From contig NC_091992.1 in NCBI RefSeq assembly GCF_044704955.1, positions 125,488,001 through 125,552,000 of the forward strand: a stretch of DNA of 64,000 nt. The letters run 5' to 3'. The notes below the pieces were generated by a model. The model had not been told where the DNA came from, ran no database searches, and was given only the letters and a program-made list of their open reading frames with translations. Position 1 is the stretch's first letter, and each line of letters opens with the position of its first letter. Positions 23,940-58,379 of the stretch are shown here, piece after piece. Made by a program: the position numbers and the translations under genes. Origin of the DNA: Pristiophorus japonicus. Lineage: Eukaryota.

Positions 23940-24300
23940 TAGAAAGAGCAGAAAAGAATAAAGAAAGAATGAAAGAAAAAAGAGAGAATGAAAGAGAACG
24001 AAAGAGAAAAAGAAAAATAAAGAAAGGAAGAGAAAGACAGAGTTAGAGTGAGAGAGAAAGAAAAAGAGAGAAAGAGGGAAAGGAAGAGAAAGAAAGCGAA
24101 AGAAAGAAAAGAGAAAGAGTAAGGGAAAAAGAGAGAGCGAGAGAGAGATAAAGAGACAGAGAGAAAGCAAACAAAAAAAGAGAAAGAAAAGAGAGAAAGA
24201 TAAAAAGAGAAAGAGAGAAAGAAAGAGAAAGGAAAAGATAAAGAGAGACAGTAAGAGAAAGAAAGAGATGGAAAGTAAAAGAGACAGAATGACAGAAAGA
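23940..24300 (+). repeat. Purine-rich (GA) low-complexity tract
   Basis: Almost exclusively A/G. Confidence 0.9.
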
Positions 24301-25151
24301 TTATTTAAAGTGAAACGCACACACACTTTTGTGACAACTCCCAAGATGGCTGTGATGATTTTTGATTTTTGGTGTTGGAGCCAGCCCGAACAAGAACAGC
24401 AGGAAATGAAGCGAGTCAGAGGAAGATGCCAGTGAAATTTGACTGGAGTCAGTTATTTCCCCTTAGTGTTTCGATGTTATTTCTGGTTTCCCGGTATTTG
24501 TATCCATAATTCTCTGTGTGTTTACCACACCAGTACCCTGGTTTCTCATTCTCTCTTTCCGCTCCTCCCCCAAGCAATATAGCATTGTGCCCCAGTAGTA
24601 ATGAATACTTTATCCTGCAAAGGCATGCTGAATAATTAAAACGTTTGTAACAAAGTACTTTCCCCATTCTCCGACTGAGAGAAGCCCTTGTGCCAGAGAC
24701 ATGATCTCAGCTGTACTGGGAGCACTTGTTGTTGTGCACAAACCTACTGCAAGATATCCAGCCACACCAGAACCACACCAGGATGCAGCAAAGCCCCAGC
24801 TAGGCACCACTGGAGGGTTGTATATGTGGCGAGGTTCCGTGTTCCTTAACCCCCCCCAATTGCACATTCTTCGACCTACATTTCATGGATCCATGATGTC
24901 ATCCAGGTCCTGAAGGCAGAGTGTTTACACAATGGGCTGCAGCTGACTGAGGAATGACCTCCCCGAGCTCCTGCAATACCGAAGGTGGCTCCAGAATTTA
25001 TACTCCTGGTGTGGAGGGTACCGAAGAATCAGCCTGTATGGTGTACTGCAGGCCTCGTGTGAGGCTCGAACCCACAACCTCTAATACAAAGCAGGAGTGC
25101 TACCAAAGTGAGCCAAGCTGTCATCAATGAACCTGGTAAAGCCACAAGTAA

Positions 25152-28114: not shown

Positions 28115-28716
28115 ATGGAGATTGGGCAGGAAAGTGGAGTTGAGGTCGATGATCAGCCATGATCTTATTGAATGGCGGAGCAGGCTCGGGGGGGCCGTAA
28201 AACCTACTCCTGCTCATATTTCTTACATCTTATGTCTTATGAATAATTCTGTGATCTGTTCCCCAACAGGGGTAGGGGTACTGAAGTTGCATGTTCAGCC
28301 ATGAACTCATTGAATGGCGGAGCAGGCTCGGGGGGGCCGTAAAACCTACTCCTGCTCCTATTTCTTATGTCTTATCTCTTATGAATAATTCTGTGATCTG
28401 TTCCCCAACAAAAAAGCAGAACAAGGCTAAAAATCCTCAAGCGTGTCAGCATCTGTAGAAAGTAAAGACGGGTTGAGGCTTTGGGTACAGAGTCTTTGTT
28501 AAAACAAGTCCATGCCTGGAACATTAACCTGTCTTGTCTCTTTACAGATGCTGATGGACATTTCCAGCATTTTCTGGTTTTATTTAACATGTTCAGTATT
28601 TGCAGTTTTTTAAAGGTTGATTTGTTCCCTCGTTTATTGTGATGATGTTGGGGCCAACGAGCTCAAGTTGGGCCATCGGCCAAAAGTCAATGAAAGAAAT
28701 GAGGGGACACAGAGGA

Positions 28717-29540
28717 TATAAGAACATAAAAACATATGAATTAGGAGCAGGAGGAGGCCATTCGGCCCCTCGAGCCTGCTCCGCCATTCAATAAAATCAT
28801 GGCTGATCTTCGACCTCAACTCCACTTTCCTGCACTATCCCTTGATTCCCTCAATATCCAAAAATCTACTGACCTCTGTCTTGAATATACTCAAAGACTG
28901 AGCCTCCAAGCCCTCTGGGGTAGAGAATTCCAAGGATTCACCAACCTCTGAGTGAAGAGATTTCTCCTCATCTCAGTCCTAATCGGCTCACCCTTTATTC
29001 TGAGACTGTGACCCCTGGTTCTAGACTCCCCAGCCAGAGGAAACATCCTCCCTGCATCTACCCTGTCGAGCCCTGTCGGAATTTTGTATGTTTCAATAAG
29101 ATCACCTCTCATTCTTCGAAACTCTAGAGAATATAGGCCTAGTCTGCTCAATCTCTCCTCATAGGACAATCCCCCCATCCCAGGAATCAGTCTGGTGAAC
29201 CTTTGTTGCACTCCCTCTATGGCAAGTATATCCTTCCTTAGGTAAGGAGACCAAAACTGTACACAATACTCCAGGTGTGGTCTCACCAGGGCCCTATATA
29301 ATTTCAGGAAGATGTCTTTGCTCTTATACTCAAATCCTTTTGCAAAAAAGGCCAACATACCATTTGTTTTCTTAATTGCTTGCTGTACCTGCATGTTAAC
29401 TTTCAGTGATTCGTGTACAAGAGCACCCAGGTCCTTCTGAACACCAACATTTTCCAATCTCTCACCATTTAAAAAATACTCTGCTTTTCTATTTTTCCGA
29501 CCAAAGTGGATAACTTCACATTTCTCCACATTATATTCCA
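28717..29540 (-). mobile_element. CR1 LINE, 5'-truncated
   Basis: ORF 28891-29583 with [30 protein letters not shown]. Confidence 0.9.
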
Positions 29541-32489: not shown

Positions 32490-35250
32490 CATAGGAGTAC
32501 ACAGGATATACAGCACAGAAACAGGCCAGTCCGCCCAACCTGTCCATGCTGCCGTTTATGCTCCACTCAAGCCTCCTCCTGTCTTTCCTCATCTAAATCT
32601 ATCAGCAAACCCTCTATTCCCTTCTCCCTCATATGCTTGTCTAAACTCCCCTTAAATGCATCGATACTATTCGCTTCAACCACTCCCTGCGGTAGTGAGT
32701 TCCACATTCTCACCACTCTCTGGGTAAAGACGTTTCTTCTTAATTCCCTATTGGATTTCTTGGTGACTATCTTATATTGATGGCCTCTAGTTATGCTCTT
32801 CCCCACAAGCGGAAACATTTTCTCTCTATCCACTCTATCAAAACTTTTCATAATTTTAAAGACCTCTATTAGGTCACCCCTCAGCCTTCTTTTTTCTACA
32901 GAAAAGAGACCAGCCTGTTCATCCTTTCCTGATATGTATACCCTGGCATTTCTGGTATCATCCTTGTAAATCTTCTCTGCGCCCTCTCCATCTGCCACAA
33001 CATCCTTTGACTGTGGATGGGTAATGGCAGACATTTAGAGACCGCATGGATGAACTACAACAATTGTACATCCCGGTCTGGCGTAAAAATAAAAAAGGGA
33101 AGGTGGCTCAACCGTGGCTATCAAGGGAAATCAGGGATAGTATTAAAGCCAAGGAAGTGGCATACAAATTGGCCAGAAATAGCAGCGAACCCGGGGACTG
33201 GGAGGAATTTAGAACTCAGCAGAGGAGGACAAAGGGTTTGATTTGGGCAGAGAAAATAGAGTACGAGAAGAAGCTTGCAGGGAATATTAAAATGGACTGC
33301 AAAAGCTTCTATAGATATGTAAAGAAAAAAAGGTTAGTAAAGACAAACGTAGGTCCCCTGCAGTCAGAATCAGGGGAAGTCATAACAGGGAACAAAGAAA
33401 TGGCAGACCAATTGAACAAGTACTTTGGTTCGGTATTCACTAAGGAGGACACAAACAATCTTCCGGATATAAAAGAAGTCAGAGGGTCTAGTAAGAAGGA
33501 GGAACTGGGGGAAATCCTTATTAGTCGGGAAATTGTGTTGGGGAAATTGATGGGATTGAAGGCCGATAAATCCCCAGGGCCTGATGGTCTACATCCCAGA
33601 GTACTTAAGGAGGTGGCCTTGGAAATAGCGGATGCATTGACAGTCATTTTCCAACATTCCATAGACTCTGGATCAGTTCCTATGGAGTGGAGGGTAGCCA
33701 ATGTAACCCCACTTTTTAAACAAGGAGGGAGAGAGAAAACAAGGAATTATAGACCGGTCAGCCTGACATCGGTAGTGGGTAAAATGATGGAATCAATTGT
33801 TAAGGATGTCATAGCAGCGCATTTGGAAAGAGGTGACATGATAGGTCCAAGTCAGCATGAATTTGTGAAAGGGAAATCATGCTTGACAAATCTTCTGGAA
33901 TTTTTTGAGGATGTTTCCAGTAGAGTGGACAAAGGAGAACCAGTTGATGTGGTGTATTTGGACTTTCAGAAGGCATTCGACAAGGTACCACACAAGGGAT
34001 TAATGTGCAAAGTTAAAGCACATGGGATTGGGGGTAGTGTGCTGACGTGGATTGAGAACTGGTTGGCAGACAGGAAGCAAAGAGTAGGAGTAAATGGATA
34101 CTTTTCAGAATGGCAGGCAGTGACTAGTGGGGTACCGCAAGGTTCTGTGCTGGGGCCCCAGCTGTTTACTTTGTACATTAATGATTTAGACGAGGGGATT
34201 AAATGTAGTATCTCCAAATTTGCGGATGACGCTAAATTGGGTGGCAGTGTGAGCTGCGAGGAGGATGCTATGAGGCTGCAGAGTGACTTGGATAGGTTAG
34301 GTGAGTGGGCAAATGCATGGCAGATGAAGTATAATATGGATAAATGTGAGGTTATCCACTTTGGTGGTTAAAAACAGAGACAGACTATTATCTGAATGGT
34401 GACAGATTAGGAAAAGGGGAGGTGCAACGAGACCTGGGTGTCATGGTATATCAGTCATTGAAGGTTGGCATGCAGGTACAGCAGGCGGTTAAGAAAGCAA
34501 ATGGCATGTTGGCCTTCATAGCGAGGGGATTTGAGTACAGGGGCAGGGAGGTGTTGCTACAGTTGTACAGGGCCTTGGTGAGGCCACACCTGGAGTATTG
34601 TGTACAGTTTTGGTCTCCTAACTTGAGGAAGGACATTCTTGCTATTGAGGGAATGCAGCGAAAGTTCACCAGACTGATTCCCAGGATGGCGGGACTGACA
34701 TTTCAAGAAAGACTGGATCAACTGGGCTTGTATTCACTGGAGTTCAGATGAATGAGAGGGGATCTCATAGAAACGTTTAAAATTCTGACGGGTTTAGACA
34801 GGTTAGATGCAGGAAGAATGTTCCCAATGTTGGGGAAGTCCAGAACCAGGGGTCACAGTCTAAGGATAAGGGGTAAGCCATTTAGGACCGAGATGAGGAG
34901 AAACTTCTTCACCCAGAGAGTGGTGAACCTGTGAATTCGCTACCACAGAAAGTTGCTGAGGCCAATTCACTAAATATATTCAAAAAGGAGTTAGATGTAG
35001 TCCTTACTACTAGGGGGAATCAAGGGGTATGGCGAGAAAGCAGGAATGGGGTACTGAAGTTGCATGTTCAGCCATGAACTCATTGAATGGCGGTGCAGGC
35101 TCGAAGGGCCGAATGGCCTACTCCTGCACCTATTTTCTATGTTTCTATGTTTATAATATGGCGACCAGAACTGCACGCCGTACTCTAAGTGTGGTGTAAA
35201 CCAAGGTTCGATACAGGTTTAGCATAGCTTCCCTACTTTTCAATTCTATG
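32490..35250 (-). mobile_element. CR1 3' fragment (32490-33005 and 35153-35250) split by a younger plus-strand CR1
   Basis: RRLRGDLIEVFKIMK on minus; sequence continues after 35152 (GACCAGAACTGCACGCCGTACTC). Confidence 0.75.
33008..35152 (+). mobile_element. CR1 LINE ORF2 (linker plus RT) and 3' UTR, 5'-truncated, with stops and frameshifts
   Basis: 441-aa ORF: KSPGPDGLHPRVLKE, NYRPVSLTSV, YLDFQKAFD, KFADD; (TTTCTATG)n tail. Confidence 0.95.
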
Positions 35251-36195: not shown

Positions 36196-36873
36196 ATAAG
36201 AACATAAGAACATAAGAATTAGGAACAGGAGTAGGCCATCTAGCCCCTCGAGCCTGCTCCGCCATTCAATAAGATCATGGCTGATCTGGCCGTGGACTCA
36301 GCTCCACTTACCCGCCCCGCTCCCCATAACCCTTAATTCACTTATTGGTTAAAAATCTATCTATCTGTGACTTGAATACATTCAATGAGCTAGCCTCAAC
36401 TGCTTCCTTGGGCAGAGAATTCCACAGATTCACAACCCTCTGGGAGAAGAAATTCCTTCTCAACTCGGTTTTAAATTGGCTCCCCCGTATTTTGAGGCTG
36501 TGCCCCCTAGTTCTAGTCTCCCCTACAAGTGGAAACAACCTCTCTGCCTCTATCTTGTCTATCCCTTTCATGATTTTAAATGTTTCTATAAGATCATCCC
36601 TCATCCTTCTGAACTCCAACGAGTAAAGACCCAGTCTACTCAATCTATCAACATAAGGTAACCCCCTCATCTCCGGAATCAGCCTAGTGAATCGTCTCTG
36701 TACCCCCTCCAAAGCCACTATATCCTTCCTTAAGTAAGCTGACCAAAACTGCACGCAGTACTCCATGTGCGGCCTTACCAATACCGTGTACAGTTGCAGC
36801 AGGACCTCCCTGCTTTTGTACTCCATCCCTCTCGCAATGAAGGCCAACATTCCATTCGCCTTCCTGATTACCT
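36196..36873 (-). mobile_element. CR1 3' fragment
   Basis: ORF 36338-36907; (CATAAGAA)n tail; nearly identical to 39860-40530. Confidence 0.9.
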
Positions 36874-39521: not shown

Positions 39522-41995
39522 TGGCCGTGGCTCAGTGGGCAGCACTCTCGCTTCTGCGTCAGAAGGTTGTGGGCTTGAGTCCCACTCCAGGGACTTGAGC
39601 ACCTAAAGTTCGGCTGACACTCCAGTGCAGTACTGAGGGAGTGCTGCACTGTCAGAGGTGCTGTCTTTCAGATGAGAAATTAAACTGAGGGCCCATTTGC
39701 TCTCTCGGGTGGACGTAAAAGATCCCATGGCACTATTTCGAAGAAGAGCAGGGGAGTTATTCCCGGTGTCCTGGCCAATATTTAACCCTCAATCAACACA
39801 ACAAAAAAAACAGATTATCTGGTCATTATCACACTGCTGTTTGTGGGAGCTTGCTGTGCATAAGAACATAAGAATTAGGAACAGGAGTAGGCCATCTAGC
39901 CCCTCGAGCCTGCTCCGCCATTCAACAAGATCATGGCTGATCTGGCCGTGGACTCAGCTCCACTTACCCGCCCCGCTCCCCATAACCCTTAATTCACTTA
40001 TTGGTTAAAAATCTATCTATCTGTGACTTGAATACATTCAATGAGCTAGCCTCAACTGCTTCCTTGGGCAGAGAATTCCACAGATTCACAACCCTCTGGG
40101 AGAAGAAATTCCTTCTCAACTCGGTTTTAAATAGGCTCCCCCGTATTTTGAGGCTGTGTCCCCTAGTTCTAGTCTCCCCTACAAGTGGAAACAACCTCTC
40201 TGCCTCTATCTTGTCTATCCCTTTCATTATTTTAAATGTTTCTATAAGATCACCCCTCATCCTTCTGAACTCCAACGAGTAAAGACCCAGTCTACTCAAT
40301 CTATCATCATAAGATAACCCCCTCATCTCCGGAATCAGCCTAGTGAATTGTCTCTGTACCCCCTCCAAAGCTAGTATATCTTTCCTTAAGTAGGGTGACC
40401 AAAACTGCACGCAGTACTCCAGGTGCAGCCTCACTAATACCCTATACAGTTGCAGAAGGACCTCCCTGCTTTTGTACTCCATCCCTCTCGCAATGAAGGC
40501 CAACATTCCATTCGCCTTCCTGATTACCTGCTGCACCTGCAAACTAACTTTTTGGAATTCATGCACAAGGACCCCCAGGTCCCTCTGCACTGCAGCATGT
40601 TGTAATTTCTCCCCATTCAAATAATATTCCCTTTTACTGTTTTTTTTCCCAAGCTGGATGACCTCACACTTTCCGACATTGTATTCCATCTGCCAAACCT
40701 TAGCCCATTCGCTTAACCTATCTAAATCTCATTGCAGCCTCTCTGTGTCCTCTACACAACCCGCTTTCCCACTAATCTTTGTGTCATCTGCAAATTTTGT
40801 TACACTACACTCTGTCCCCTCTTCCAGGTCATCCATGTATATTGTAAACAGTTGTGGTCCCAGCACCGATCCCTGTGGCACACCACTAACCACCGATTTC
40901 CAACCCGAAAAGGACCCATTTATCCCGACTCTCTGCTTTCTGTTAGCCAGCCAATTCTCTATCCATGCTAATACATTTCCACTACTCCGTGTACCTTTAT
41001 CTTCTGCAGTAACCTTTTGTGTGGCACCTTATCGAATGCCTTTTGGAAATCTAAATACACCATATCCATCGGTACACCTCTATCCATCATGCTCGTTATA
41101 TCCTCAAAGAATTCCAGTAAATTAGTTAAACATGATTTCCCCTTCATGAATCCATGCTGCGTCTGCTTGATTGCACTATTCCTATCTAGATGTCCCGCTA
41201 TTTCTTCCTTAATGATAGTTTCAAGCATTTTCCCCACTACAGATGTTAAACTAACCGGCCTATAGTTACCTGCCTTTTGTCTGCCCCCTTTTTTAAACAG
41301 AGGCGTTACATTAGCTGCTTTCCAATCCGCTGGTACCTCCCCAGAGTCCAGAGAATTTTGGTAGATTATAACGAATGCATCTGCTATAACTTTCGCCATC
41401 TCTTTTAATACCCTGGGATGCATTTCATCAGGACCAGGGGACTTGTCTACCTTGAGTCCTATTAGCCTGTCCAGCACTACCCCCTTAGTGATAGTAATTG
41501 TCTCAAGGTCCTCCCTTCCCACATTCCTGTGACCAGCAATTTCTGGCATGGTTTTTGTGTCTTCCACTGTGAAGACCGAAGCAAAATAATTGTTTAAAGT
41601 CTCAGCCATTTCCACATTTCCCATTATTAAACCCCCCTTCTCATCTTCTAAGGGACCAACATTTACTTTAGTCACTCTTTTCCGTTTTATATATCTGTAA
41701 AAGCTTTTACTATCCGTTTTTATGTTTTGCGCAAGTTTACCTTTGTAATCTATCTTTCCTTTCTTTATTGCTTTCTTAGTCATTCTTTGCTGTCGTTTAA
41801 AATTCTCCCAATCTTCTATTTTCCCACTAACCTTGGTCACCTTATACGCATTGGTTTTTAATTTGCCCAAATTGGCTGCCATGTTTCCCACATTACAACA
41901 GTGACTACACTCCAATAGTACTTCATTGGCTGTAAAGCATTTTGAGACGTCCGGTGGTTGTGAAAGGCGCTATATAAATCCAAATCTTTCTTTTC
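39522..41995 (+). mobile_element. Deu-domain SINE (39522-39860 and 41866-41995) split by a CR1
   Basis: GCTTGCTGTGC | ..CAAATTGGCTGCC contiguous across the insert. Confidence 0.8.
39860..41865 (-). mobile_element. CR1 LINE ORF2, 5'-truncated, frameshifted
   Basis: ORFs 40968-41915 and 39994-40689 with RT motifs. Confidence 0.94.
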
Positions 41996-43400: not shown

Positions 43401-43890
43401 ACTAATGCAATTGCTTCATGGGTTATTTGCTTAAGAATTCATAGCAACACATTGCTATTAAGAACAAAGGTTTAACAATCACACTACACATTACCAGTTC
43501 ATCCACCAGGCTCACAACTGCATACCTCATCGTGGATGACATACACCCAACTGACTGGGGTTTTATTGAGTCTTGTGGACATCACATGACTGGCTAAGCC
43601 ATTCACAATGCAACAGCTCTACAACTATTTTAAAGTAAGGTTAATACAAGAGCCCCCTTAATAAAGGGCACCAGAATCAACAAATTAACAAGTAAAACTT
43701 TTTGAAACTACGGTCAAATTAAAATTTGGTTGCCAGGGGTGATGATGCACTCCAGTCCCTCCGGCGTCTACCTCTCGCGGAAGGCCGCGAGCACACCGCT
43801 GGACACCGTGTGCTCCATCTCCAGGGACACCCTGGCGCAATGCAACAGCTCTACAAACCTGTGAGCATACCAACAGGTACATACATTACA
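43401..43890 (-). mobile_element. Solo LTR family A carrying a Tx1-clade insertion
   Basis: Homologous to 3941-4592; ends TACATTACA at 43890; left terminus decayed. Confidence 0.82.
43625..43837 (-). mobile_element. Tx1-clade LINE 3' fragment
   Basis: ARVSLEMEHTVSSG..AAFRER; 19-bp TSD CAATGCAACAGCTCTACAA at 43606-43624 and 43838-43856. Confidence 0.85.
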
Positions 43891-44004
43891 GCCATCTTTA
43901 AATTCAAGGAATGAAATCGGAGAGCTCTGCACTGTGTCCCTCCTCCCCAGTACTCCTGACACCGATGCCATGCAGTGCTCCTTGCCTCTTCCCAGACTTC
44001 AAGG

Positions 44005-44440
44005 GTTAAGTTACCAGGAGGGATTGTGCAAATTAGGGATGTTTTCCCTAGAAATTAGAAGGTGAAGGGGTGATCTGATCAAAGTTTTCAGGATATTAAA
44101 GGGAACAGATTGGGTAGATAGAGAGAAGCTATTCCCGCTGGTTGGGGAGTCTAGGACTAGGGGGGCATAGTCTAAATATTAGAGCCAGACCTTTCAGGAG
44201 TGAAATTAGGAAACACTTCTACACACAAAGGGTGGTAGAAGTTTGGAACTCTCTTCTGTAAACAGCTATTGATACTCGATCAATTATTCCTTTTAAATCG
44301 GAGATTGATAGCCTTTTATTAAAAAAAGACATTAAGGGATATGGGGCAAAGGCGGGTATATGGAGTTAGGTCACAGATCAGCCACGATCTCATTGAATGG
44401 CGGAACAGGCTCGAGGGGCCGAATGGCCTCTTCCTGTTCC
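44005..44440 (+). mobile_element. CR1 3' end, older subfamily
   Basis: GGGTGATCTGATCAAAGTTTTCAGGAT; CR1-type 3' UTR. Confidence 0.75.
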
Positions 44441-44689
44441 TTCCCTCTCCCTCCCCATGTCAGGAAAGTGCTTGCAGCGTAACAGGTACCCAACTGGCCT
44501 TCACCGGTTGTTGGTAATACAACCCTGGGGCTCCCAGTGTGTGGTGAGAGACAAAGAGGGAGCACTTGCAAACTCTGCCAATGAGCGGCCCTTGTATTAT
44601 TGGTGAAGTCAGCGCATTTGTGCACCAGTGCATGTAGCACCCGAGTGCAGTAATGGTGCAGCACTCAGCCGCAGTAGGTGCTGCTACAT

Positions 44690-45062
44690 CAAGTGGGGGT
44701 ATGGTCGTGTGTTGGTCATGTTACTAGACTAGTTATTCAGAGCCCTGGTCTAATAATCTGGAGAACGCGAGCTCAAAATCCACCATGGCAAATTGAGGAT
44801 TTGATTTTTTTTAAATCTGGAATTAAACAGCTGGTACCAATAAAAGTGACCATGAAACTATAGGATTGTTGTTAAAAACCCAACCGGTTCACTAATGTCC
44901 TTTAGGGAAGGAAATCGGCCGTCCTTACCCAGTCTGGCCTATATGTCACTCCGGACCCACAGCAACGTAACTTCCCTGTGAAGTGGGCATGACCCTCAGT
45001 CGACTCAGGGCAGCTGGGGATGGGACAATAAATGCCAGCCTGCCCAGCGATGCCAAAGAAAA
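44690..45062 (+). mobile_element. SINE of a second family, sharing its 3' tail with the LINE at 57028-57370
   Basis: Degenerate tRNA-like head; tail ATAAATGCCAGCCTGCCCAGCGATGCC. Confidence 0.55.
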
Positions 45063-45820
45063 GAAAAAGAAGGGGCAACAAAACTTGTCTGGACTGTTCC
45101 ACAACTTGCCCATCAGCAAGACCATGTGTTTACGTGGACAGAATACTGCGGCTACAGAGCTGGCATCTGCTGGCTAAATCTGGTCAAAAATTATTTTAAC
45201 TAAGTATGTTCCAACCAGCAGCCAACAGTGGGAATTAACCCGATTCGCCACACAGGCCACAGCCTGGGGGAAAAAAATATACATCAACAAGCTCACTTCA
45301 AAACATAGTGGACCGTACTGGAGCAAAATCGCAGACCTCGGGACACAGCAGGAGACACAGTGTGCCATCAATGCCCTGTCAGCTCCCCTGCTACATAATG
45401 GAGGTGGAGAATGAGAGATAAGGCAGAGTTTTTTTTAAATTTAACGTCTGCATTCAACATTACAACTAATTCAAACCATTTCGGCGAAGATATTAGTCGG
45501 GAATTTTTGCACGGGGCACATCGAAATGCAGCCGTTATCACAACACTGTTCAGGCCCCAGAAACTGCTTTGCCTGGCACCATTTTCCTTTCAGCTTGCCT
45601 TGTTGCCACAATTCACGCAGCCAATCCAGTTTCAATATGAAATACATTCTGCACTCACCTCCTCGCTGCCCTGAGGTCCAGTGGCCTGTTCCAGTCACAA
45701 GTGCAGAAAGACAAACAAAAAAAGAGAGAGATAAATATTAGTATTTTTCTTCTTGAACCCGTTTTTGACTTTTCTGGAATTAACGAAAATGTTGTGAATT
45801 TTGCTCATTTTAATCATCGA

Positions 45821-46552
45821 TGTAATGTATTTGCTTCATGGGTTCTGTGTTTAAGAATTCACAGCAACACATTGCTATTAAGAACTAGTTGGTTTATTAA
45901 CAAATATTTAACAATAACGCAACACATTACCAGTTCATCCACTAGGCTCACAACTGCATACCTCATCATGGATGACCAAGACCCAACTGACTGGGGTTTT
46001 ATTGAGTCTTGTGAACATCACGTGACTGGCTCAGCCACTCACAATGCAACAGCTCTACAACTATTTTGAGTTGTATCAGTAATCAGGTGCCTTCTGATTA
46101 AAGGGGGGGGGTCACACTCCAAAAACTGTTCAAGTGTCCCCTCGTTTTTTGAGGGCACTAAAAACACAAATTATACACGTGCCCCTGGCTAAAGGGGGGG
46201 TGGGGGGGAATTAAAACCGACAAACTTAAACAAATTAAACGTTGGACAAGGTTCAAATTAAAATTTGGTTGCCGGGGGTGATGATGCGCTCCAGTCCCTC
46301 CGGCGCCCACCTCTGGCGGAAGGCCATGAGCGTACCGGTGGGCACCGCGTGCTCCATCTCCAGGGACACCCTGGCTCGGATGTAACCGCGGAAGAGAGGC
46401 AGGCAGTTGGGCTGAACGACCCCCTCGACCACCCGCTGCCTGGACCGGCTGATGGCCCCCTTGGCCATGCCCAGGAGCAGTCCTTCGAGGAGGCCCTCGG
46501 ACCTCAACAGCTCCACAAACCTGTGAGCATACTCACAGGTGCATAGATTACA
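45821..46552 (-). mobile_element. Solo LTR family A carrying a Tx1-clade insertion
   Basis: TGTAATGTA...GATTACA; homologous to the other three copies. Confidence 0.85.
46061..46504 (-). mobile_element. Tx1-clade LINE 3' fragment
   Basis: SEGLLEGLLLGMAKGAISRSRQR...PGNQILI*; 14-bp TSD CAACAGCTC(T/C)ACAA at 46047-46060 and 46505-46518. Confidence 0.88.
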
Positions 46553-47403
46553 ATTGTGATTTCATTCAAATAGAATAACTCCCCAGGAGCTCTTAAAGCA
46601 GATTTTTCTGCAACACAGTAATTTAGCATGTCATTCTTTAAAATATTTTAGATTTAATTACCCAACCCCCAGCCCCTCACCACCCCATTTCATTAAGCAT
46701 AAAGTATTAAAAGCCCATCTGCCAATAAACACATTTAGTTAGGTTCTTTAAAACAGCTTATCGATGAGGGACTGCTGGCAACGCAACGGGTACAATTCCT
46801 GCTGCCAATGCACTACAGCACGATGGGAAGTAGTTATGTCCCTGCAATTCTCCGCAAAAGTCCCTCGTCCCAGTCAAATAGTCAGGAGGAGGTCAGTCTT
46901 GCACACCTCATGGCAATGGGTTACAGCTCACTGGCAAATCTTCATGAGCAACTCAGCTGCCAGGAAGTGGTGTGTGGGACTCAAATAAGAGAACACTTAA
47001 ATGATAAGTGAAGTGGAGAAATAAGTTTTAATATGTAGCAAATAAAATAGAAAGTAAACCTGGTACCAACAATTGTGTTTGAAGCGGGAGTAGCCTTTTA
47101 GATATTCAAAAAACAGTGGCCTTATAAGTTACGGAGACCACAATCTCAACTATCTCTGAGACATTAGATCGAGTGACCAACAGAGAGATTTGTAATTCAT
47201 CCCCTTTCTATTATCTTATACAATACAGTGAAATCTCTTTATACTACTGTTATGTTTTCGGTACTACCTCACAAACACACAGCTTTTAAAATGGATGATA
47301 ACTTCAGGAGCCAATCAGGTGACCTGACCTGTTTATTCTTGCAAACAGCAACGGTTGCAATGCTACAGTAGTTCACTGGGTGGAGCTATATATATTGCAA
47401 CTA

Positions 47404-47840
47404 CAGGTTGGACCTCTGTGGTCCGGCACCCTAGGGAGCTGACCGGTGCCGAACCGGAGAATTTTCCGAACCACGGGAGGTCAGTATATGACGGTACCGA
47501 TACATCCGACATATGAATACGCCTAGTCTAGGCTTACCGGTACCTGTAGAGTGCTGCTCACTGCTCTCCCGGACTAACTTTAACATTCTTTTGTTTGTAT
47601 CTGTCCGCTTGTGTTTTGCTCTTTGGGCACTTTTCTTTATAAAAGTGACTGCTGATAATAGCAGAGAACCTGTCTGTTAATGAGGCCCACTGTCTCCAGA
47701 CATAAAATGGCACGATCACTGAAACACCTCGGGATGGACAGGCGTGGGAGAAGATGGCCGAAAGCGGCAGCTCCGCAAACTAATGCCGAAGCACGGATGT
47801 TTCCAGACCAGAGAGTCCTGGACCAGAGAGGTTCAACCTG
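47404..47840. mobile_element. Tc1/mariner (pogo/Tigger-like) MITE
   Basis: TA TSD on both sides; TIRs CAGGTTGGACCTCTGTGGTCC / GGACCAGAGAGGTTCAACCTG. Confidence 0.8.
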
Positions 47841-48627
47841 TACTCCATATTGAAAGCTATCTATCCTGTAAAATACTGTAAGGGGCACATGACTTTCTGG
47901 GGTGTTACAGAATGGTGCATGCAGACAGAATGCAATAGCATTGTTTCCTTAGATGGCCCCTTTCCCCTCTCCAAGAAAGTCCTCCGAATTACAAAATGGT
48001 GTCCATACCGCTGGGTTAAGGCCAGTTGAGTGCAGCATTTCTTGAGCATCTTTATGGGCGAGCGATCATTTCTGTGGTATATGGGCGAGATGCCGAAAGT
48101 AATACTCGGCGATAATCTGGGCGGTATTCGGGCATTGGTTTCCATTATAAACAGTCTTCTGGGCAGTGCACGAGTGATGACGTCAGAATTCAAAAAAAAA
48201 AAAATGTGGGCGGATGGTTCAGCTAATCCTCGACGTTAACTGTATGCCGAAAGTTACCACGGCGATAAGTAGGCAATAATTGGGCATTAGTTCCCATTTA
48301 TAATCAAATATGACCGTTAAACTCAATCTCGGCGGTTAAATGGGCGGTAACTGGGCGATCCCAATGGAAAGTCTAGCCCACGGTCTTTTTTAGCCCCACC
48401 ATTCTCACTGACTTCTCTGGAAGACACTCCTCAATCTACTTTGCACAGCGAGTTGTGAATATATCTAACTGACTACCCGGGGGTGAGACCGTGTGAGTGG
48501 ATGATGCTGGCAAATTCAAAAAGTTGCAGGTAATGTGACTGAGGGGTACGACAGATAGTATGATGAATGGCAATTTACAAAGTTTAATCTGGTCAGCTAC
48601 ACTGGTAAGGTCTCTTCTGGTTCTGTC

Positions 48628-48892
48628 TCATCATCATAGACAGTCCCTCGAACGAGGGTGACTTGCTTCCACAAGAGTTCACAGATGTTTCAATGAGGGA
48701 CCCGATGTTCCAGTCCCTGAGCTCCAATCGAGGGGGTGGAAGATGCCTGTGCGTGGGTTTTTTTTAACGTGTGGTGGCCGTTGCACACCAGCCACCACAC
48801 GGGCTTGACAGAGCTTGGCCTTTATCCAGTGGCAAGGGTTAACCAGGACGACTGGAGACCAGCTCTGCTGAACGGACCTTGTGCACACACAT
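48628..48892 (-). mobile_element. Short non-autonomous element with an RTE-type 3' tail
   Basis: Tail (minus) GGAAGCAAGTCACCCTCGTTCGAGGGACTGTCTATGATGATG matches the RTE ends at 13351 and 35500; internal hairpin CGTGTGGTGGC...GCCACCACACG. Confidence 0.6.
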
Positions 48893-49044
48893 AGGCAGCA
48901 ATCAAACAACAGGCACGTCTGAAGCTGTTTACAGCCCCATTCTGAAAGGCCAAATCAAGTCACTTCTCTGGTCTATTACTATCTTCTAATCAGCATTTTA
49001 CAGCCAGGCTGAAATAAAGACACCTGATGGTATACAACAGTAAA

Positions 49045-49390
49045 ACACCGCGGACGCTGGAATCTGAAATAAAAACAGAAAATGCTGGAAATACTCAGCG
49101 GGTCAGGCAGCATCTGTGGAGAGAGAAACAGAGTTAACGTTTCAGGTCTGTGACCCTTCGTCAGAACTGGAAACAGTTAAGAGATGTAGCGGGTTTTTAA
49201 GCAAGTGTAGGAGCGGGGAAAGTGGGGAGGGGAGGAAGGGACAAAAGGGGAAGGTCTGTGATAGGATGGAAGGCAGGAGAGATTAAGAGACAAACGAGAT
49301 GATGGTGCGAGGCAAAAGGAGATGGTAATGGGAAACAATAGATGAGTCTAGGTAGGGTGCAAATGGAGATGGCAGAGTCATCAACAGCTG
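49045..49390 (-). mobile_element. Penelope-like terminal repeat
   Basis: Reverse complement of 1-190, extending further. Confidence 0.7.
49132..49168 (-). ncRNA. Minimal type I hammerhead ribozyme motif with intact core
   Basis: AGUU-CUGACGA-A-GGGUC-ACA-GACCU-GAAAC-GUU-AACU; stem I AGUU/AACU; palindromic AACGUU stem III. Confidence 0.7.
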
Positions 49391-49782
49391 CCGTGAGAAA
49401 GAGGAAAAAAAACTGATGGTATAATGTCTTTTTTCTCTCCCGATTGATGTGTCAGGAACATAATGTCCTAAAATGTATCTCTCAGTTTTTCTAATTTTAC
49501 TGCAACCTCTGTGAAATTGATCTAAAAATGCCTTCACAAGATGTTTTCAACTCCAGTGTAACAACTCTCAACATTTCTCCCCAATTGCACTCTTCCACTT
49601 GTCACAGCACCTTTTAACTGAGGTGTTAAATTTAATATCAAATGCTTCTTTCTGCAAAACTCTCAAATGTTTTGCAAAAACTTCAAGAACTCTCCAGCAC
49701 AAAGGACAGCGCCAAGCTCACGGCAAAGTGCTATAGGCACGTGTAACAAGCATTACCTGAAAGTCGCTATGGCCATCATCCC

Positions 49783-49987
49783 TGTTGTGTATGCAATAAC
49801 TGTTAGACTGAGTACTGTTTAACTCCAAGAGGTATGACCTTGGCTCTGCTTTACTAAGGCCCAAAGTGACTAATATACAAAATGGCTGGCCTTTTATACT
49901 TGGGCTGCACACACGTGCGTGCAGCCCAATGGCCTCCAACATGGACGCCATCTAGTGGCTAGTGATGCCAGAAGTACACGCATGACA
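49783..49987 (-). mobile_element. Solo LTR (family D)
   Basis: TG...CA termini; 5-bp TSD ATCCC at 49778-49782 and 49988-49992; TATAAAA on minus. Confidence 0.8.
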
Positions 49988-50820
49988 ATCCCCAAGGCAT
50001 GCAGTATGTGAGCGTTACCAGTCATTTAGCGAATGCTGAAGAGCCCTCACGTGAGTGTCGGCTGTAGCTCAATGACATATAACTGAAAGGTTGCAGCAAA
50101 GAGCAAGTTCTTTCTGCCAGTGTCTGCATCCCCCATAGCTTTCCTAGAATCCATTTATATACCCTAAAGCTTAGATCCTCCTCACTGACAAAAACCCACT
50201 GCTCTCCCAATACTAGCTATCAATTAACAATTTTAAAAGTTAACATTTTTTGGTAAATTTTTGTTATCTAGTCTCAGGACCAAGCACTCCGAAGTTAAGT
50301 GTAGAATAGCCAGATTTGCTGCAAAGCTCCCTCGAGCCTGCCTCAGTTATGCGCATTAAAGTCTACTTCAAACGAGCACCCCACCCCTCTCCATTGCACC
50401 TTAATGTCAATTTTTCTGTTTCCCATTTTCTAATTTCTTTAAGCAATAGTCAATTTAGTGTAAAACTTTTGGGCAGTGCGTTAACGGTCTGTTCAAATCG
50501 TTGAACCTGCCCAAACTCATTTCACAGCAAGAGAGCAGACTTTCGTTCAAGCAGTATGTTTTTCAAACACAGGGATCTTTCTCTTCAGCAAGCCTTTCTT
50601 TTATTTCACTTGACGCACGTTTCCAGAATGCTCGAAAACTGCTGTAGAATGAGGTTGCATATAAGAACATCTCTGCCGTACATTCAATAACCCATTCCTG
50701 CCATGACAGCTTATTAAGATCACAGCGCAACATATTCTAATGCGAACGTATATCCATGTACGACTTGTTGCCAACCCTCACCTTGAACAGGTGTTGCTCG
50801 AGGCCGCTGGTTAACCCCAC

Positions 50821-50895
50821 CCACCTCCATGGCACGAACCTGGTATTGCAGTACTTCCAGGAACGGTGCAGTGGCTCTCGGCCTTTTGGCTAAGA
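50821..50895 (+). ncRNA. Circularly permuted U2 snRNA fragment (3' end joined to 5' end); not an intact U2 gene
   Basis: ACCTGGTATTGCAGTACTTCCAGGAACGGTGCA (50838-50870, U2 stem-loop IV) then TCTCGGCCTTTTGGCTAAGA (50876-50895, U2 nt 7-26), compared with the recalled vertebrate U2 sequence. Confidence 0.88.
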
Positions 50896-52156
50896 GCATT
50901 GGCGCAGAGTGATCCTTGATGTGTGCAAGGTGACCTTTGGCGTTTGTGATTTGACAAAGAATTGGAAAGATTGGCTACGAATAAAGGGGTCCCCACTGCA
51001 CACTTTAGCACAGAATTATTATTTTTCTTTCCGCGCAGTATGGGATGGTACTCGTTATTCCACGAGCGTTGGACATCACAGGAGGAGGGCCAGCAGAAGG
51101 AGGAAGTGGTTGCCCTTGATGTCAGGTGGCACACAAAGGCATACCCTCGCGTCCCATTTTTATGCAACAAAACCAGCCCACCATACCAGGAACAGCTACC
51201 TGGAAATTGCAGAGGAGATGCGCCCAAGGTTGTCACGGAGGTTTGTAATCCTCTTGAGGAAGCCTCCAGAGAAGAGCCATCATCTTTATGGAACAATTAG
51301 TGGCCAAAGTCACCTTGGCCATCAATTGTTGTGTCAGATCCTTCCAGGCAAGCGCTGGCAACATCTGCAGAGTTGGCTAGTTTGTTATCCACAGATCTAT
51401 CAGGGCAATCATTACAGAATTATAATGTCAACGCTTTCTGTATTGAACAACAGGATCAATGTGATAGGGCAGGGCATGTCTACAAAACATTGCCCAGGAT
51501 CTCGGGGGTCAGCATTTGCGCCCATGTTGCCATTTCAGGCCCCTGCTAACCATGCTGTGCCGTAACCCGAAACAAAAAGGGGATTTTATTCTCTCAATGT
51601 CAACGTGGTATGCAACCACCAACACACAATCATGCCTCCTCCTCTGGAATCCCTCACAATACTTTCATCTTAAGGCGTTTTCCTGTTCCATCTTTGCTTG
51701 AAGGGGGATGGAACAGTGGTAGAATGGTTCCCAAGAGACTAAGGCTACCTGCTGTAGTCATAGCTGGAGACACCTCTGTGACAACTATAGCAGGAGCAAA
51801 GAGCAGAGGCAACAAAGTTCCGGTTCTAGAATCAAATATACCAGAGGGATTTTGAAGCAGCCAGGTGGTGGGGAGATGTTACCTTCCAGTACAAGCCCTT
51901 CCACCCTAACCATGCCTTCAAGAATAATTAGGGTCTGGTGCTTGATCCTTAACCATGTCCTGCATATCGCTGAAGTCATGGAAGACCAAGAGGGTGAACA
52001 TTAAAATGAGAAGTTAGCAATGCAGCAAGAATAACTGGTGCATCAGACATTAATTCAAGATACAGAAGAACATAAGAACATAAGAATTAGGAGCAGGAGT
52101 AGGCCATTTGGCCCCTCGAGCCTGCTCCGCCATTCAACAAGATCATGGCTGATCTG

Positions 52157-52290
52157 TAATACTATTTATGTGTTATTATAGAATATATTTAATATATAAA
52201 TCATATGTTAATATATAATATATTATATTAATATATTATAGTATAAGTTCACTGTAGTAATTTATTATAAATTTATGCATTTGATATATA
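52157..52290. repeat. AT-rich low-complexity tract
   Basis: TA-rich degenerate repeat. Confidence 0.75.
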
Positions 52291-52956
52291 TGCACCGCTC
52301 TAACCCCGCCCACCTGAATATGGCTCAGGGAGGGAAAATCACCCGCCCGCGGCGGCCGATCGATTTTTGCCGATCGGCCGCCCAAACCCCGCGGTAGCCG
52401 TCCCTTTGGGGACGGTGACTTTCGGCCCCTATATATTTGCAGGGCTACAAGGAAAGAACAGTGGGGTGGGACTAATTGCATCGCTCTTTCAAACAGCCGA
52501 CACAGTCACGGTGGGCTGAATGGTCTCCTTCTGTGCTGTACAATTCTAAGAATGGAAATTCTAGCCACATGGCAACCTCGATCAGACAGTATACTGGTGC
52601 TTTATGGACAAGGGAAATACTTCTGCTTGGTGAGAACGAAAGATCAACACTCTCAAATATCATGTGCATCTTGTTCTACCGTGTGATCTTAATGTAACAT
52701 ATGAAGAGTGGGGTTAATCACATTGGGGGCGGGGGCGGAGGGGGATCTAATTAATAGGAAGCCTTGCCCTTCTTCACTTCATAAGAACATAAGAGATAGC
52801 AGGAGTAGGCCATTTGGGCCTGCTCCGCCATGTAATAAGATCATGGCTGAAATGATCTTGGCCTCAACTCCACTTTCTTGCCTGTTCCCCATAATCCCTT
52901 ATCCCCTAGTAATGTATGCACCTGTGAGTATACTCACAGGTTTGTAGAACTGTTGA

Positions 52957-53773
52957 TCTGCGCGGAGGGGTTTCCTGTACAGGCTGCGCCTGCACAATCT
53001 CAACCTTGCCATCCTCGTCTACGCGGGAGTCCTCCCACTATTCATCGGGGACTTGGCCTGGAGGGTGGTGCACGGAGCAGTCCCGTGCAACAAATTTTTG
53101 AGCCGGTTCACGGGCTCCCAGGCCGCCTGCAATTTCTGCGGTCTGGAAAAGTCCGTGTTCCACGTTTTTATCGAATGTACGAGGTTGCAGCCCCTGTTCC
53201 ATTATTTAAAGGGGCTGCTCCTCAATTTCTGGTTGCACTTCAGTCCCACACTCCTGATCTTTGGGCACCCCTGTGCGGAGGGGAGTGGGTAGGTCCGAGG
53301 GCCTCCTCGTAGGACTGCTCCTGGGCACGGCCAAGGGTGCCATCAGCCGGTCCAGGCAGCGGGCGGTCGAGGGGGTCGTTCAGCCTGACTGCCTGCCTCT
53401 CTTCTGCACCTACATCCGGGCCAGGGTGTCCCTGGAGATGGAGCATGCGGTGTCCACCGGTACGCTCGCTGCCTTCGGCGAGAGGTGGGCACCGGAGGGA
53501 CTGGAGTGCATCGTTACCCCCGGCAACCAAATTTTAATTTGATTTTATGTTTTAAAATGTAATTTGTTATTGCCGGATTTTTAGTGTCCCCCTCCCCTTT
53601 TATAGGGGGCACTTGTAAAATATGTAATTTTAATGCCCTAAAAAAAAACACAAAAAAAACCCCTACAAAAATACAAAAAAAAACAACAAAAAAAAGGGGC
53701 CTTTGGAAATGTTTGGAGTGTCCCCCAGATCGGGGGGCACTTGATCTAATGTATTTTGTTTACTCTAAAAGAG
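52957..53773 (+). mobile_element. Tx1-clade LINE 3' fragment, copy 1 (ORF2 C-terminal CCHC finger)
   Basis: WRVVHGAVPCNKFLSRFTGSQAACNFCGLEKSVFHVFIECTRLQPLF, resembling the Xenopus Tx1 ORF2 C-terminus; flanked by TTGTAGAACTGTTGA (52942-52956, 53774-53788). Confidence 0.9.
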
Positions 53774-53788
53774 TTGTAGAACTGTTGA

Positions 53789-54694
53789 TCTGCGCGGAGG
53801 GGTTTCCTGTACGGGCTGCTCCTGCACACTCTCCACCTTGCCATCCTCATCTGCCGTCCGGACACGCCATGGCGCACCATCTTGCCGTCCGGAGGAGGCA
53901 GGGGTCCCCGATGAAGGGCACTCTACACGGGAGTCCTCCCATTATTCATCGGGGACTTGGCCTGGAGGGTGGTGCACGGAGCAGTCCCGTGCAACAAATT
54001 TTTAAGCCAGTTCACGGGCTCCCAGGCCGCCTGCAATTTCTGCGATCTGGAAAAGTCCGTGTTCCACGTTTTTATCGAATGTACGAGGTTGCAGCCCCTG
54101 TTCCATTATTTAAAGGGGCTGCTCCTCAATTTCTGGTTGCACTTCAGTCCCACACTCCTGATCTTTGGGCACCCTGTGCGGAGGGGAGCGGGTAGGTCCG
54201 AGGGCCTCCTCGTTGGACTGCTCCTGGGCACGGCCAAGGGTGCCATCAGCCGGTCCAGGCAGCGAGGGGGTCGTTCAGCCTGACTGCCTGCCTCTCTTCC
54301 GCGCTTACATCCGAGCCAGGGTGTCCTTGGAGATGGAGCACGTGGTGTCCACCGGTACGCTCGCGGCCATCCGCGAGAGGTGGGCGCCGGAGGGACTGGA
54401 GTGCATTATCACCCCCGGCAACCAAATTTTAATTTGATTTTACATGTTTTAAAGTTTAATTTGTTTTAATTGCCGGGGTTTTAGTGTCCCCCTCCCCTTT
54501 TATAGGGGGCACTTGTAAAATATGTAATTTTAATGCCCCCCAAAAATTTAAAAAACCCAAAATAACCCAAAAAAAACAAACAAAAAAAAAAGAAAAAAGA
54601 GGGCAGTTAAAAGTGTCTGGAGTGTCCCCCCAGATCAGGGGGTGGGGGGGCACTTGATCTAATGTTTATTTTGTTCCTCCCTCCCCCAAAAGAG
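53789..54694 (+). mobile_element. Tx1-clade LINE 3' fragment, copy 2
   Basis: Same CCHC finger; ORF ends PGNQILI* at 54437; followed by GTGTAGAACTGTTGA (54695-54709). Confidence 0.9.
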
Positions 54695-55062
54695 GTGTAG
54701 AACTGTTGAGCTGTGAGTGGCTTAGCCAGTCACGTGATGTTCACAAGACTCAATAAAACCCCGGCCAGTTGGGTTCGGGAGATCCACGATTAGGCAGGTG
54801 GTTGTGAGCCTGGTGGATGAACTGGTAATGTGTCGTGTGATTGTTAGACCGTTACTAATAAACCAACTCGTTCTTAATAGCAATGTGTTGTTCTGAATTC
54901 TTAAGCAAAGAACCCATGAAGCAAATACATTACACCCCTGTAGTTCAAAAATCTGTCTATCTCAGCCTTGAATATATTCAATGATCCAGCTTCCACAGCT
55001 CTCTGGGGTAGAAAATTCTGAAGGTTTACGACCCTCAGAGAAGAAATTCCTCCTCATCTTCG

Positions 55063-56113
55063 TCAGACAGGAAGCAAAGAGTAGGAATAAACGGGTCCTT
55101 TTCAGAATGGCAGGCAGTGACTAGTGGGGTACCGCAAGGTTCAGTGCTGGGACCCCAGCTATTTACAATATACATTAATGATTTAGATGAAGGAATTCAA
55201 TGTAATATCTCCAAGTTTGCAGATGACACTAAGCTGGGTGGCAGTGTGAGTTGTGAGGAGGATGCTAAGAGGCTGCAGGGTGACTTGAACAGGTTAGGTG
55301 AGTGGGCAAATGCATGGCAGATGCAGTATAATGTGGATAAATGTGAGGTTATCCACTTTGGTGGTAAAAACAGGAAGGCAGAATATTATCTGAATGGTGA
55401 CAGATTAGGAAAAGGGGAGGTGCAACGAGACCTGGGTGTCATGGTACATTAGTCATTGAAAATTTACATGCAGGTACAGCAGGCGGTGAAGAAGGCAAAT
55501 GGCATGTTGGCCTTCATAGCGAGAGGATTTGAGTATAGGAGCAGGGAGGTCTTACTGCAGTTGTACAGGGCCTTGGTGAGGCCACACCTTGAATATTGTG
55601 TACAGTTTTGGTCTCCTAATCTGAGGAAGGACATTCTTGCTATTGAGGGAGTGCAGCAAAGGTTCACCAGACTGATTCCTGGGATGGCAGGACTGACATA
55701 TGAAGAAAGACTGGATCGACTAAGCTTATATTCAATGGAATTTAGAAGAATGAGAGGGGATCTCATAGAAACATATAAAATTCTGACAGGATTGGACAGG
55801 ATAGATGCAGGAAGAATGTTCCCGATGTTGGGGAAGTCCAGAACCAGGGGTCACAGTCTAAGGATAAGGGGTAAGCCATTTGGGACCGGGATGAGGAGAA
55901 ACTTCTTCACTCAGAGAATTGTGAACTTGTGGAATTCTCTACCACAGAAAGTTGTTGAGGCCAGTTCGTTAAAGGGATCAAGGGGTATGGAGAGAAAGCA
56001 GGAATGGGGTACTGACGTTGCATGATCAGCCACGATCATATTGAATGGTGGTGCAGGCTGAAGGGCCGAATAGCCTACTTCTGCACCTATTTTCTATGTT
56101 TCTATGTTTCTAT
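55063..56113 (+). mobile_element. CR1 LINE, 5'-truncated
   Basis: [27 protein letters not shown]; (TTTCTATG)n tail. Confidence 0.92.
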
Positions 56114-56770
56114 GTTAAATGGGCGACCCCTTATTCTGAAACTATGCCCCCAAGTTCTAGATTACCCCATGAGGGGAAACATCCTCTCAGCATCTACCCT
56201 GTCAAGCCCCCTCAGAATCTTATATGTTTCAATGAGATCACCTCTCATTCTTCCAAACTCCAATGAGTATAGACCCAACCTGCTCAACCTTTCCTCACAA
56301 GACAATCCTTTCATCTCAGGAATTAACCTAGTGAACCTTCTCTGAACACCCTGCAATGCAAGTATATCCCTCCTTAAATAGGGAAACCAAAACTGTACAC
56401 AGTACTCCAGGTGTGGACTCAGCAATGCCCTGTACAGTTGTAGCAAGACTTCCCTACCTTTATACTCCATCCCCCTTGCAATAAAGGCCAACATTCCATT
56501 TGCATCTTAATAACTTGCTGTACCTGCATGCTAACATTTTGTGTTTCCTGTACAAGATCCCCCAGATCCCTCTGTACCATGGCATTTGTGTCTCTCTATT
56601 TAAATAATATTCTGCTTTTCTATTCTTCCCACCAAAGTGGATAACCTCACATTTTCCCACATTATACTCCATCTGCCAATTTTTTGCTCTCTCACTTAAC
56701 CTATCTATATCCCTTTGCAGACTCTGTCCTCCTCGCAACTTGCTTTCCCACCTATCTTTGTATCGTCAGT
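56114..56770 (-). mobile_element. CR1 fragment
   Basis: [30 protein letters not shown]. Confidence 0.88.
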
Positions 56771-58232: not shown

Positions 58233-58379
58233 NNNNNNNNNNNNNNNNNNNNNNNNNNNNNNNNNNNNNNNNNNNNNNNNNNNNNNNNNNNNNNNNNNNN
58301 NNNNNNNNNNNNNNNNNNNNNNNNNNNNNNNNNNNNNNNNNNNNNNNNNNNNNNNNNNNNNNNNNNNNNNNNNNNNNNN
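58233..58379. other. Assembly gap (N run) followed by a purine-rich tract to ~58575
   Basis: Run of N in the sequence. Confidence 0.99.

Follow-up and report, generated by a model that had tools for sequence, protein, structure and literature searches.

How does a site-specific long interspersed nuclear element (LINE) come to change its target? This is an open question, and for elements with an apurinic/apyrimidinic-type (APE) endonuclease that enzyme is usually taken as the main determinant. It is raised by 64,000 nucleotides of the Pristiophorus japonicus genome (assembly GCF_044704955.1, contig NC_091992.1, positions 125,488,001 to 125,552,000; hereafter the window), where fragments of a Tx1-clade LINE sit at one exact position inside the long terminal repeat (LTR) of another retrotransposon. 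Genome-wide, we find that this lineage reached the LTR site through many independent events and later moved to two families of CR1 elements, first CR1-B and then CR1-A. It likely finds its sites by a two-part address, namely a CACCTG or CAGCTG hexamer about 19 nt before the cut and 3–4 bases at the cut itself.

The window holds four copies of a ~275-bp repeat with TG...CA ends, here called A to D, and Tx1 3′ pieces interrupt three of them. All four pieces lie in the sense of the LTR and end at TTGTAGA(G/A)CTGTTG. The copies, the inserts with their 3′ untranslated regions (UTRs), and the target site duplications (TSDs) are as follows.

3941 to 4592, minus strand: LTR copy A, solo, Gypsy-type, with the target site empty; an unrelated ~380-bp piece at 4005-4384 splits the copy
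43401 to 43890, minus strand: LTR copy B, solo, with one Tx1 insert
43625 to 43837, minus strand: Tx1 3′ fragment in copy B, the end of open reading frame 2 (ORF2) plus an 89-nt UTR of the oldest tail class
43838-43856 and 43606-43624, minus strand: TSD of the copy-B insert
45821 to 46552, minus strand: LTR copy C, solo, with one Tx1 insert
46061 to 46504, minus strand: Tx1 3′ fragment in copy C, with a 192-nt UTR of the middle class
46505-46518 and 46047-46060, minus strand: TSD of the copy-C insert
52908 to 54934, plus strand: LTR copy D, solo, with two stacked Tx1 units and the 5-bp TSD CCCCT
52957 to 53773, plus strand: Tx1 unit 1 in copy D, with a 231-nt UTR of the youngest LTR-era class
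52942-52956 and 53774-53788, plus strand: TSD of unit 1 in copy D
53789 to 54694, plus strand: Tx1 unit 2 in copy D, with a 257-nt UTR and the same 5′ break as unit 1
54695-54709, plus strand: last TSD copy, after unit 2 in copy D

An earlier sequence-only reading of the window had reported these repeats, the four inserts and their common 3′ target, and all were found again. The insert TSDs in B, C, and D measure 19, 14, and 15 bp and the UTRs 89, 192, and 231/257 nt, as it stated; the 14-bp TSD contains one mismatch, and the 19-bp length may include microhomology. Copy A is indeed an empty site, and a search with a full-length Tx1 sequence revealed no further Tx1 DNA in the window, of which 147 N bases (58233-58379) are unread. 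Two repeat copies had been credited with clear 5-bp TSDs of their own: that of copy D is perfect, that of copy A matches at only 4/5 positions, and those of B and C are unclear.

By its sequence the insert is a Tx1-clade LINE, as first proposed. Its ORF2 product is 49% identical over 99% of its length to that of Xenopus Tx1, the sole named retroelement among the top matches. By identity, the nearest protein matches are those from sharks and rays. An intact relative from the CR1-targeting branch encodes an ORF1 of 702 aa, with no Pfam match, and an ORF2 frame of 1306 residues, in which Pfam recognizes Exo_endo_phos (13-234) and RVT_1 (519-768), with zf-RVT below the cut-off. ORF2 of LTR-era copies is 88–98% identical to this copy. 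The family has two ORFs, 5′ truncation, TSDs of 12–19 bp, and no LTRs, and one near full-length copy occupies precisely the target position of a 3′ LTR.

The host repeat in the window is a true LTR of Gypsy type, with BEL/Pao not formally excluded. A pattern joining the repeat end to TGG has 429 matches, many followed by a common spacer, a start like a primer-binding site (PBS), and then gag. Extended loci show reverse transcriptase (RT), RNase H, and integrase in that order (read in L108, L110, L113, L114, L117, and L098; Pfam RVT_1, RT_RNaseH, and rve), then a purine tract and a second LTR. Paired TG...CA LTRs, a PBS after the 5′ LTR, a polypurine tract before the 3′ LTR, and a 5-bp TSD are all present, and the two LTRs of ten pairs have diverged by 6–11%. 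The 9-bp terminal inverted repeat raised the possibility of a miniature inverted-repeat or other DNA transposon, which the PBS, polypurine tract, and pol pieces rule out. We take the host to be Mag-like, partly from its motifs. The Tx1 site lies ~35–48 nt into the LTR, upstream of AATAAA.

Junctions with these targets are abundant across the genome. Exact 21-mers, which favor young copies and so give lower bounds, number 9,364 at the window's site (LTR site 1), 224 at a second position in the LTR (LTR site 2), 622 in CR1-B, and 15,691 in CR1-A; controls, including the reversed pattern for LTR site 1, gave 0. Occupancy of the LTR family, a measure the sequence-only reading had suggested, is ~70% by exact 31-mers at LTR site 1 (2,981 filled versus 1,188 empty), and a junction-free LTR query found 15/29 other LTR copies filled. 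For the CR1-A target it is ~20% (6,167 versus 23,972). Counting from the LINE instead, 23/29 other Tx1 tails join the LTR site, and ~89 of the first 100 CR1-A tail ends lie on target. Of 100 listed 3′ ends from one LTR-era tail class, 32 fall at site 1 and 28 at site 2, where chance would give ~4 (ends counted by eye). One sequence type thus fills more than 20% of flanks, the share by which Kojima defines target specificity, in all three samples (23/29, 60/100, and ~89/100). The first 30 of 29,238 ORF2-end motifs comprise 18 CR1 junctions, several of them segmental duplicates, 5 LTR junctions, 1 in an LTR that has lost its end, and 6 others. Counts close to the beginning of C1 are inflated by sets of identical filled CR1 loci (L133, L134, L141; L135, L137; L132, L138), likely segmental duplications. 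In CR1-A and CR1-B the site falls on one and the same codon of the ORF2 motif RDLGVLVH, in antisense orientation. Homologues of these elements' RT occur in sharks, rays, birds, and turtles, none named CR1 by its source; we provisionally take them to be CR1 on established knowledge and the motif RDLGVLV. The LTR is therefore a landing pad for exact-site insertion, as had been suggested, but not the only one, since the youngest branch, and the largest by exact count, uses CR1.

Other insertion positions also occur. At L090/L113 an antisense Tx1 occupies a third position of the same LTR, with CAGCTG 20 nt upstream; in six loci (L183, L186, L191, L232, L234, L236) the 5′ UTR of Tx1 itself is the target, at a position immediately ahead of ORF1, and the 5′ join is seamless. 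Tx1 pieces at L019, L021, and L153 adjoin integrase or LTR ends of another Gypsy family and may be further targets or recombinants. At L242-L269, the 5′ ends of several short inserts cluster to within a few bases close to the ORF2 end, either a hot spot or an alignment effect.

Many independent events, rather than amplification of a few, produced these insertions. An alternative is that Tx1 hitch-hiked, a few insertions being amplified with the Gypsy element or the LTR serving as a vehicle, and the sequence-only reading had supposed that Tx1 might gain the LTR's mobility. We examined 35 PBS-bearing loci, in which 17 LTR pairs could be scored: 5 were both empty, 7 discordant, and 5 both filled. 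The doubly filled proviruses would suit hitch-hiking, yet 4 of the 5 hold different inserts in their two LTRs and the fifth is not comparable, so that no pair among the 17 (1 undetermined) has the same insert twice. Because LTR pairs are discordant or differently filled, the inserts arrived after provirus integration, and co-mobilization is unsupported. Truncation agrees: 49 truncated first units have 46 distinct 5′ breaks, and although 3 exact breaks recur between loci, this is far from the genome-wide identical truncation by which the sequence-only reading proposed it could be refuted. Its inference of independent events accordingly holds between loci; within copy D the two units begin at one same base, so their truncations are not independent of each other. 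Hitch-hiking is largely refuted and barely credible as a general explanation.

The order of target use runs from the LTR to CR1-B and then CR1-A. A tree of ORF2 DNA from 32 long copies, with CpG columns dropped and rooted on the most diverged classes, forms a ladder from old LTR-era copies through younger, copy-D-like ones to a CR1-B grade and a CR1-A clade. CR1-A and CR1-B copies, together with one off-target copy, form a single clade inside the LTR-era copies (support 100/100), and CR1-A nests inside the CR1-B grade (97/98). Pairwise divergence within classes falls along this series (15.7%, 8.8–10.7%, 7.0%, and 1.0%). The direction is also given independently of rooting, because the head of full-length CR1-branch copies is a remnant of the LTR site, after which comes an LTR-era 5′ end. 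Copies at LTR site 2 likewise have ~29 nt of LTR at their head. Ancestral Tx1 RNAs thus likely began inside host sequence, and these LTR-derived heads lend indirect support, and only that, to the idea that Tx1 used LTR transcription. No CR1-type 5′ end directly in the LTR site was found by pattern matching (0 matches). The notion that the CR1 branch had newly acquired its ORF1 is weakened by the youngest LTR-era copies, which are intermediate (84–95% in ORF1). One full-length copy, L240, is joined to CR1-B at the 5′ end and to CR1-A at the 3′ end; like L225, L238, and L239 it has an additional base in the CR1-B flank, the same in all four, which suggests that the RNA brought flank sequence in.

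What do the successive sites have in common? At LTR site 1, CR1-A, and CR1-B alike, CACCTG ends 19 nt ahead of the cut. In the window the hexamer and an empty CR1-A site were read at these positions.

46536 to 46541, minus strand: CACCTG hexamer of copy C, ending 19 nt ahead of the cut, read from sequence
52919 to 52924, plus strand: CACCTG hexamer of copy D, ending 19 nt ahead of the cut, read from sequence
40534 to 40572, plus strand: empty CR1-A target of the younger Tx1 branch, with CACCTG at 40534-40539 and the cut near 40558

The last of these is antisense to the CR1 ORF2 motif RDLGVLVH. A 20-bp palindrome at the LTR start (window 52918-52940, and other LTR copies) overlaps the hexamer and ends just ahead of the site.

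Many insertions outside the favored sites show a like feature, with CANNTG ending 17–21 nt upstream in 18/46 off-target rows against a 2.1% background (16/36 once 2 on-target and 8 tandem or mis-paired rows are dropped). A sister family provides a natural experiment. CR1-C matches over the 12 bases that follow the cut, its upstream word being TACCTG or AACCTG, and only 22 of its copies are filled versus 15,869 empty (0.14%). CACCTG is present in 8/9 filled copies with a visible 5′ flank and in 0/20 empty ones, so that, at the level of sequence, filled and empty CR1-C copies are told apart by a single base of the motif. The window itself has three empty CR1-C-type sites with TACCTG, at 1327, 15816, and 63849 (minus strand).

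Specificity might instead come from the endonuclease together with pairing between read-through RNA and the target, the hexamer being a passenger. Off-target junctions do begin with the subfamily's own first target bases (GT for site 1, GA for site 2, TCA for CR1-A), and among 796 CR1-A tail ends there is no G. There are also suggestive endonuclease changes: V/R in the hairpin loop, a loop whose role is treated in PMC1950540, and I201V at the position of L1 I204, the latter position accounting for one of two differences between young LTR-era and CR1-B copies. Pairing by 3′ read-through raises R2Ol insertion (PMC6530143). However, CR1-C is filled ~150-fold less despite the same 12 bases, and its filled copies carry the motif; read-through pairing would favor the downstream TSD, opposite to the polarity of stacked units in 21/21 cases (see below); and the two LTR-site subfamilies show 0 fixed endonuclease differences among 116 scored positions. 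Between old LTR-era and CR1-A copies, 6 of 240 endonuclease positions show fixed differences, a rate no higher than in other domains, and R196V already varies among LTR-era copies. An endonuclease-driven switch was rejected on these grounds, long RNA read-through as the sole determinant was dropped after the stack polarity and CR1-C results, and the combined explanation appears decidedly unlikely.

Another possibility is that a host factor reads the hexamer and tethers the Tx1 complex, leaving ORF2 no part in recognition. CACCTG and CAGCTG are E-box words bound by basic helix-loop-helix (bHLH)/E-protein and ZEB/Snail factors, and 15/18 off-target motif rows have one or the other. Branches are less alike in ORF1 and the 5′ UTR than in ORF2, which leaves room for a tether. 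The spacing, however, is tight and one-sided (18–21 nt, with the reverse CAGGTG not seen there in off-target rows), and this fits a protein that both binds and cuts. We consider tethering unlikely, though not negligible, and favor readout by the LINE's own protein.

Stacked units bear on the same question. Neighboring units have the same 5′ break in 34/43 cases, against 1.5% of 7,190 cross-locus pairs; as these breaks fall at many different positions, hot spots do not explain them. Besides 18 same-class neighbors there are 21 of different-age tail classes, and in 21/21 of these the younger class lies upstream. This polarity follows from the motif, which stands at −19 relative to the first TSD copy and to no other. 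Each insertion would rebuild the TSD, and with only the motif-adjacent copy remaining a target, stacks would grow at their 5′ side. Synthesis of the new cDNA likely ends with a jump to the resident unit, whose 5′ joint is then copied, giving common breaks with different tails. One young pair has the chimeric profile expected, with 1 difference in 3.6 kb, then 13 within the final 1 kb. The simpler idea that stacks are plain tandem duplications that diverged later draws on the common breaks and on near-identical arrays (some with 3 differences in 3 kb), and duplication does account for some arrays and part of the same-class pairs. Mixed-class stacks make duplication alone insufficient, and as the general origin of stacks it is very improbable. 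Head-to-tail arrays of full-length Tx1 at L161-L169 (C1, ~9.71-9.77, 10.64-10.66, and 22.64-22.66 Mb; units of 7.1–7.2 kb) sit inside single CR1 copies; some units have intact ORFs and are probably still active.

Taken as a whole, we regard as probable an account in which the Tx1 LINE enters LTR and CR1 sites by target-primed reverse transcription, guided by the two-part address, with the LTR as landing pad and not vehicle. Recognition of the hexamer would fall to a part of the ORF2 protein other than the endonuclease core, much as R2 reads an upstream motif; we place the reader there because the L1 endonuclease requires only a few bases on either side (PMC1950540). The cut bases (TTGTA, TTGA, or TTCA by subfamily) would be set by pairing of the RNA 3′ end, by small endonuclease changes, or by both, and a change in them would let the lineage move to another abundant repeat with the motif at the right distance.

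Several observations pull the other way. As many as 40/100 listed ends of the LTR-era tail class lie at neither LTR site, and over half of off-target sites have no exact E-box. Among the 22 filled CR1-C-type rows, 11 have no visible 5′ flank and 2 are CR1-A copies. Within the LTR family CACCTG is intact in 17/33 empty and 31/62 filled copies, which leaves motif loss unsupported as the cause of empty LTRs, and copy B of the window is filled despite TACCTG. LTR site 2 has just CAGGTG, at −18. Where Tx1 has entered its own 5′ UTR there is no clear motif and no E-box at −19. A 138-row tree on 300 nt concurs with the 32-copy tree but is poorly resolved, and both are rooted by age arguments, without an outgroup. 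Finally, the units of one three-unit stack are as different as unrelated copies, with no clear switch point. No clear TATA box was seen at the site, without a dedicated test.

A more specific version is possible, and we put it forward tentatively, as less likely than not: the address may be modular, with a fixed, protein-read E-box at −19 and a cut code of a few bases held in the RNA 3′ end, so that a copy landing in a new repeat with the E-box would hand that site on to its offspring and the lineage would hop between selfish elements (LTR, CR1-B, CR1-A) as sites fill, its endonuclease nearly unchanged.

Parts of this biology are already known, and the sequence-only reading's belief that the pairing was undescribed does not stand. 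The crocodilian families Tx1-8_Crp and Tx1-4_AMi prefer specific LTR retrotransposons (Kojima 2015, PMC4494074). The available text of that report gives no site, motif, or occupancy for them, whereas the shark Tx1 has a base-exact site, an evident upstream motif, and a lineage followed from the LTR into two CR1 families. The same text describes SINEU-3 copies inserted in tandem with a TSD sandwiched between them, and on the short interspersed element SINEU-2B a 5′ extension that derives from the target, which the target-derived heads of shark Tx1 resemble. Tx1L of Xenopus laevis (UniProt "Transposon TX1 uncharacterized 149 kDa protein") also combines an APE endonuclease with RT and also inserts in another transposon, Tx1D of piggyBac type (PMC4494074), but its target differs in class and sequence, and PMC4494074 and PMC1950540 ascribe its specificity to the endonuclease. 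In the Tx1-Mar group and Tx1-9_AMi, as in the shark lineage, close families target different transposons or two regions of one; these targets are Mariner and Harbinger elements, and the available text gives no LINE target or mechanism of shift (PMC4494074). The nearest parallel for the address is R2Bm, whose RUM and RASIN likewise place an upstream motif at a fixed distance from a short cut-site motif; off-target sites keep both, and 3′ RNA homology aids priming (PMC10499050). R2 differs in its restriction-like endonuclease and N-terminal zinc finger (ZnF)/Myb domains, and shark Tx1, with an APE endonuclease and no N-terminal ZnF/Myb in Pfam, falls outside the R2 clade. It does show an R2-like upstream motif at fixed spacing on genomic evidence, the LTR copies showing no difference. 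In the literature outside Repbase, Dfam, subscription journals, and the PMC4494074 supplements, we found no report of a CR1-targeting Tx1, an upstream Tx1 motif, or this shark family.

Elsewhere in the window, CR1-type 3′ fragments of several subfamilies lie at 1028-2030, 15200-16510, 18130-19120, 28700-29540, 33800-35150, 36200-36870, 39860-40980, and 55070-56500. A 33-bp tandem repeat occupies 20875-21136, and a tandem array of low complexity 23927-24315.

This genome offers a dated series of switches in one lineage, a natural one-base target experiment, and intact young ORFs, making the question of how site-specific LINEs change targets directly testable; a landing-address motif would make target switching testable in turn. 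With ~70% of the sites in an LTR family and ~20% of the coding-region sites in a CR1 family filled, this LINE is a measurable case of transposon-on-transposon parasitism, and its stacks represent a polarized way of building tandem arrays. If the modular reading of the address were true, a young intact copy would be a partly RNA-programmable gene-insertion enzyme.

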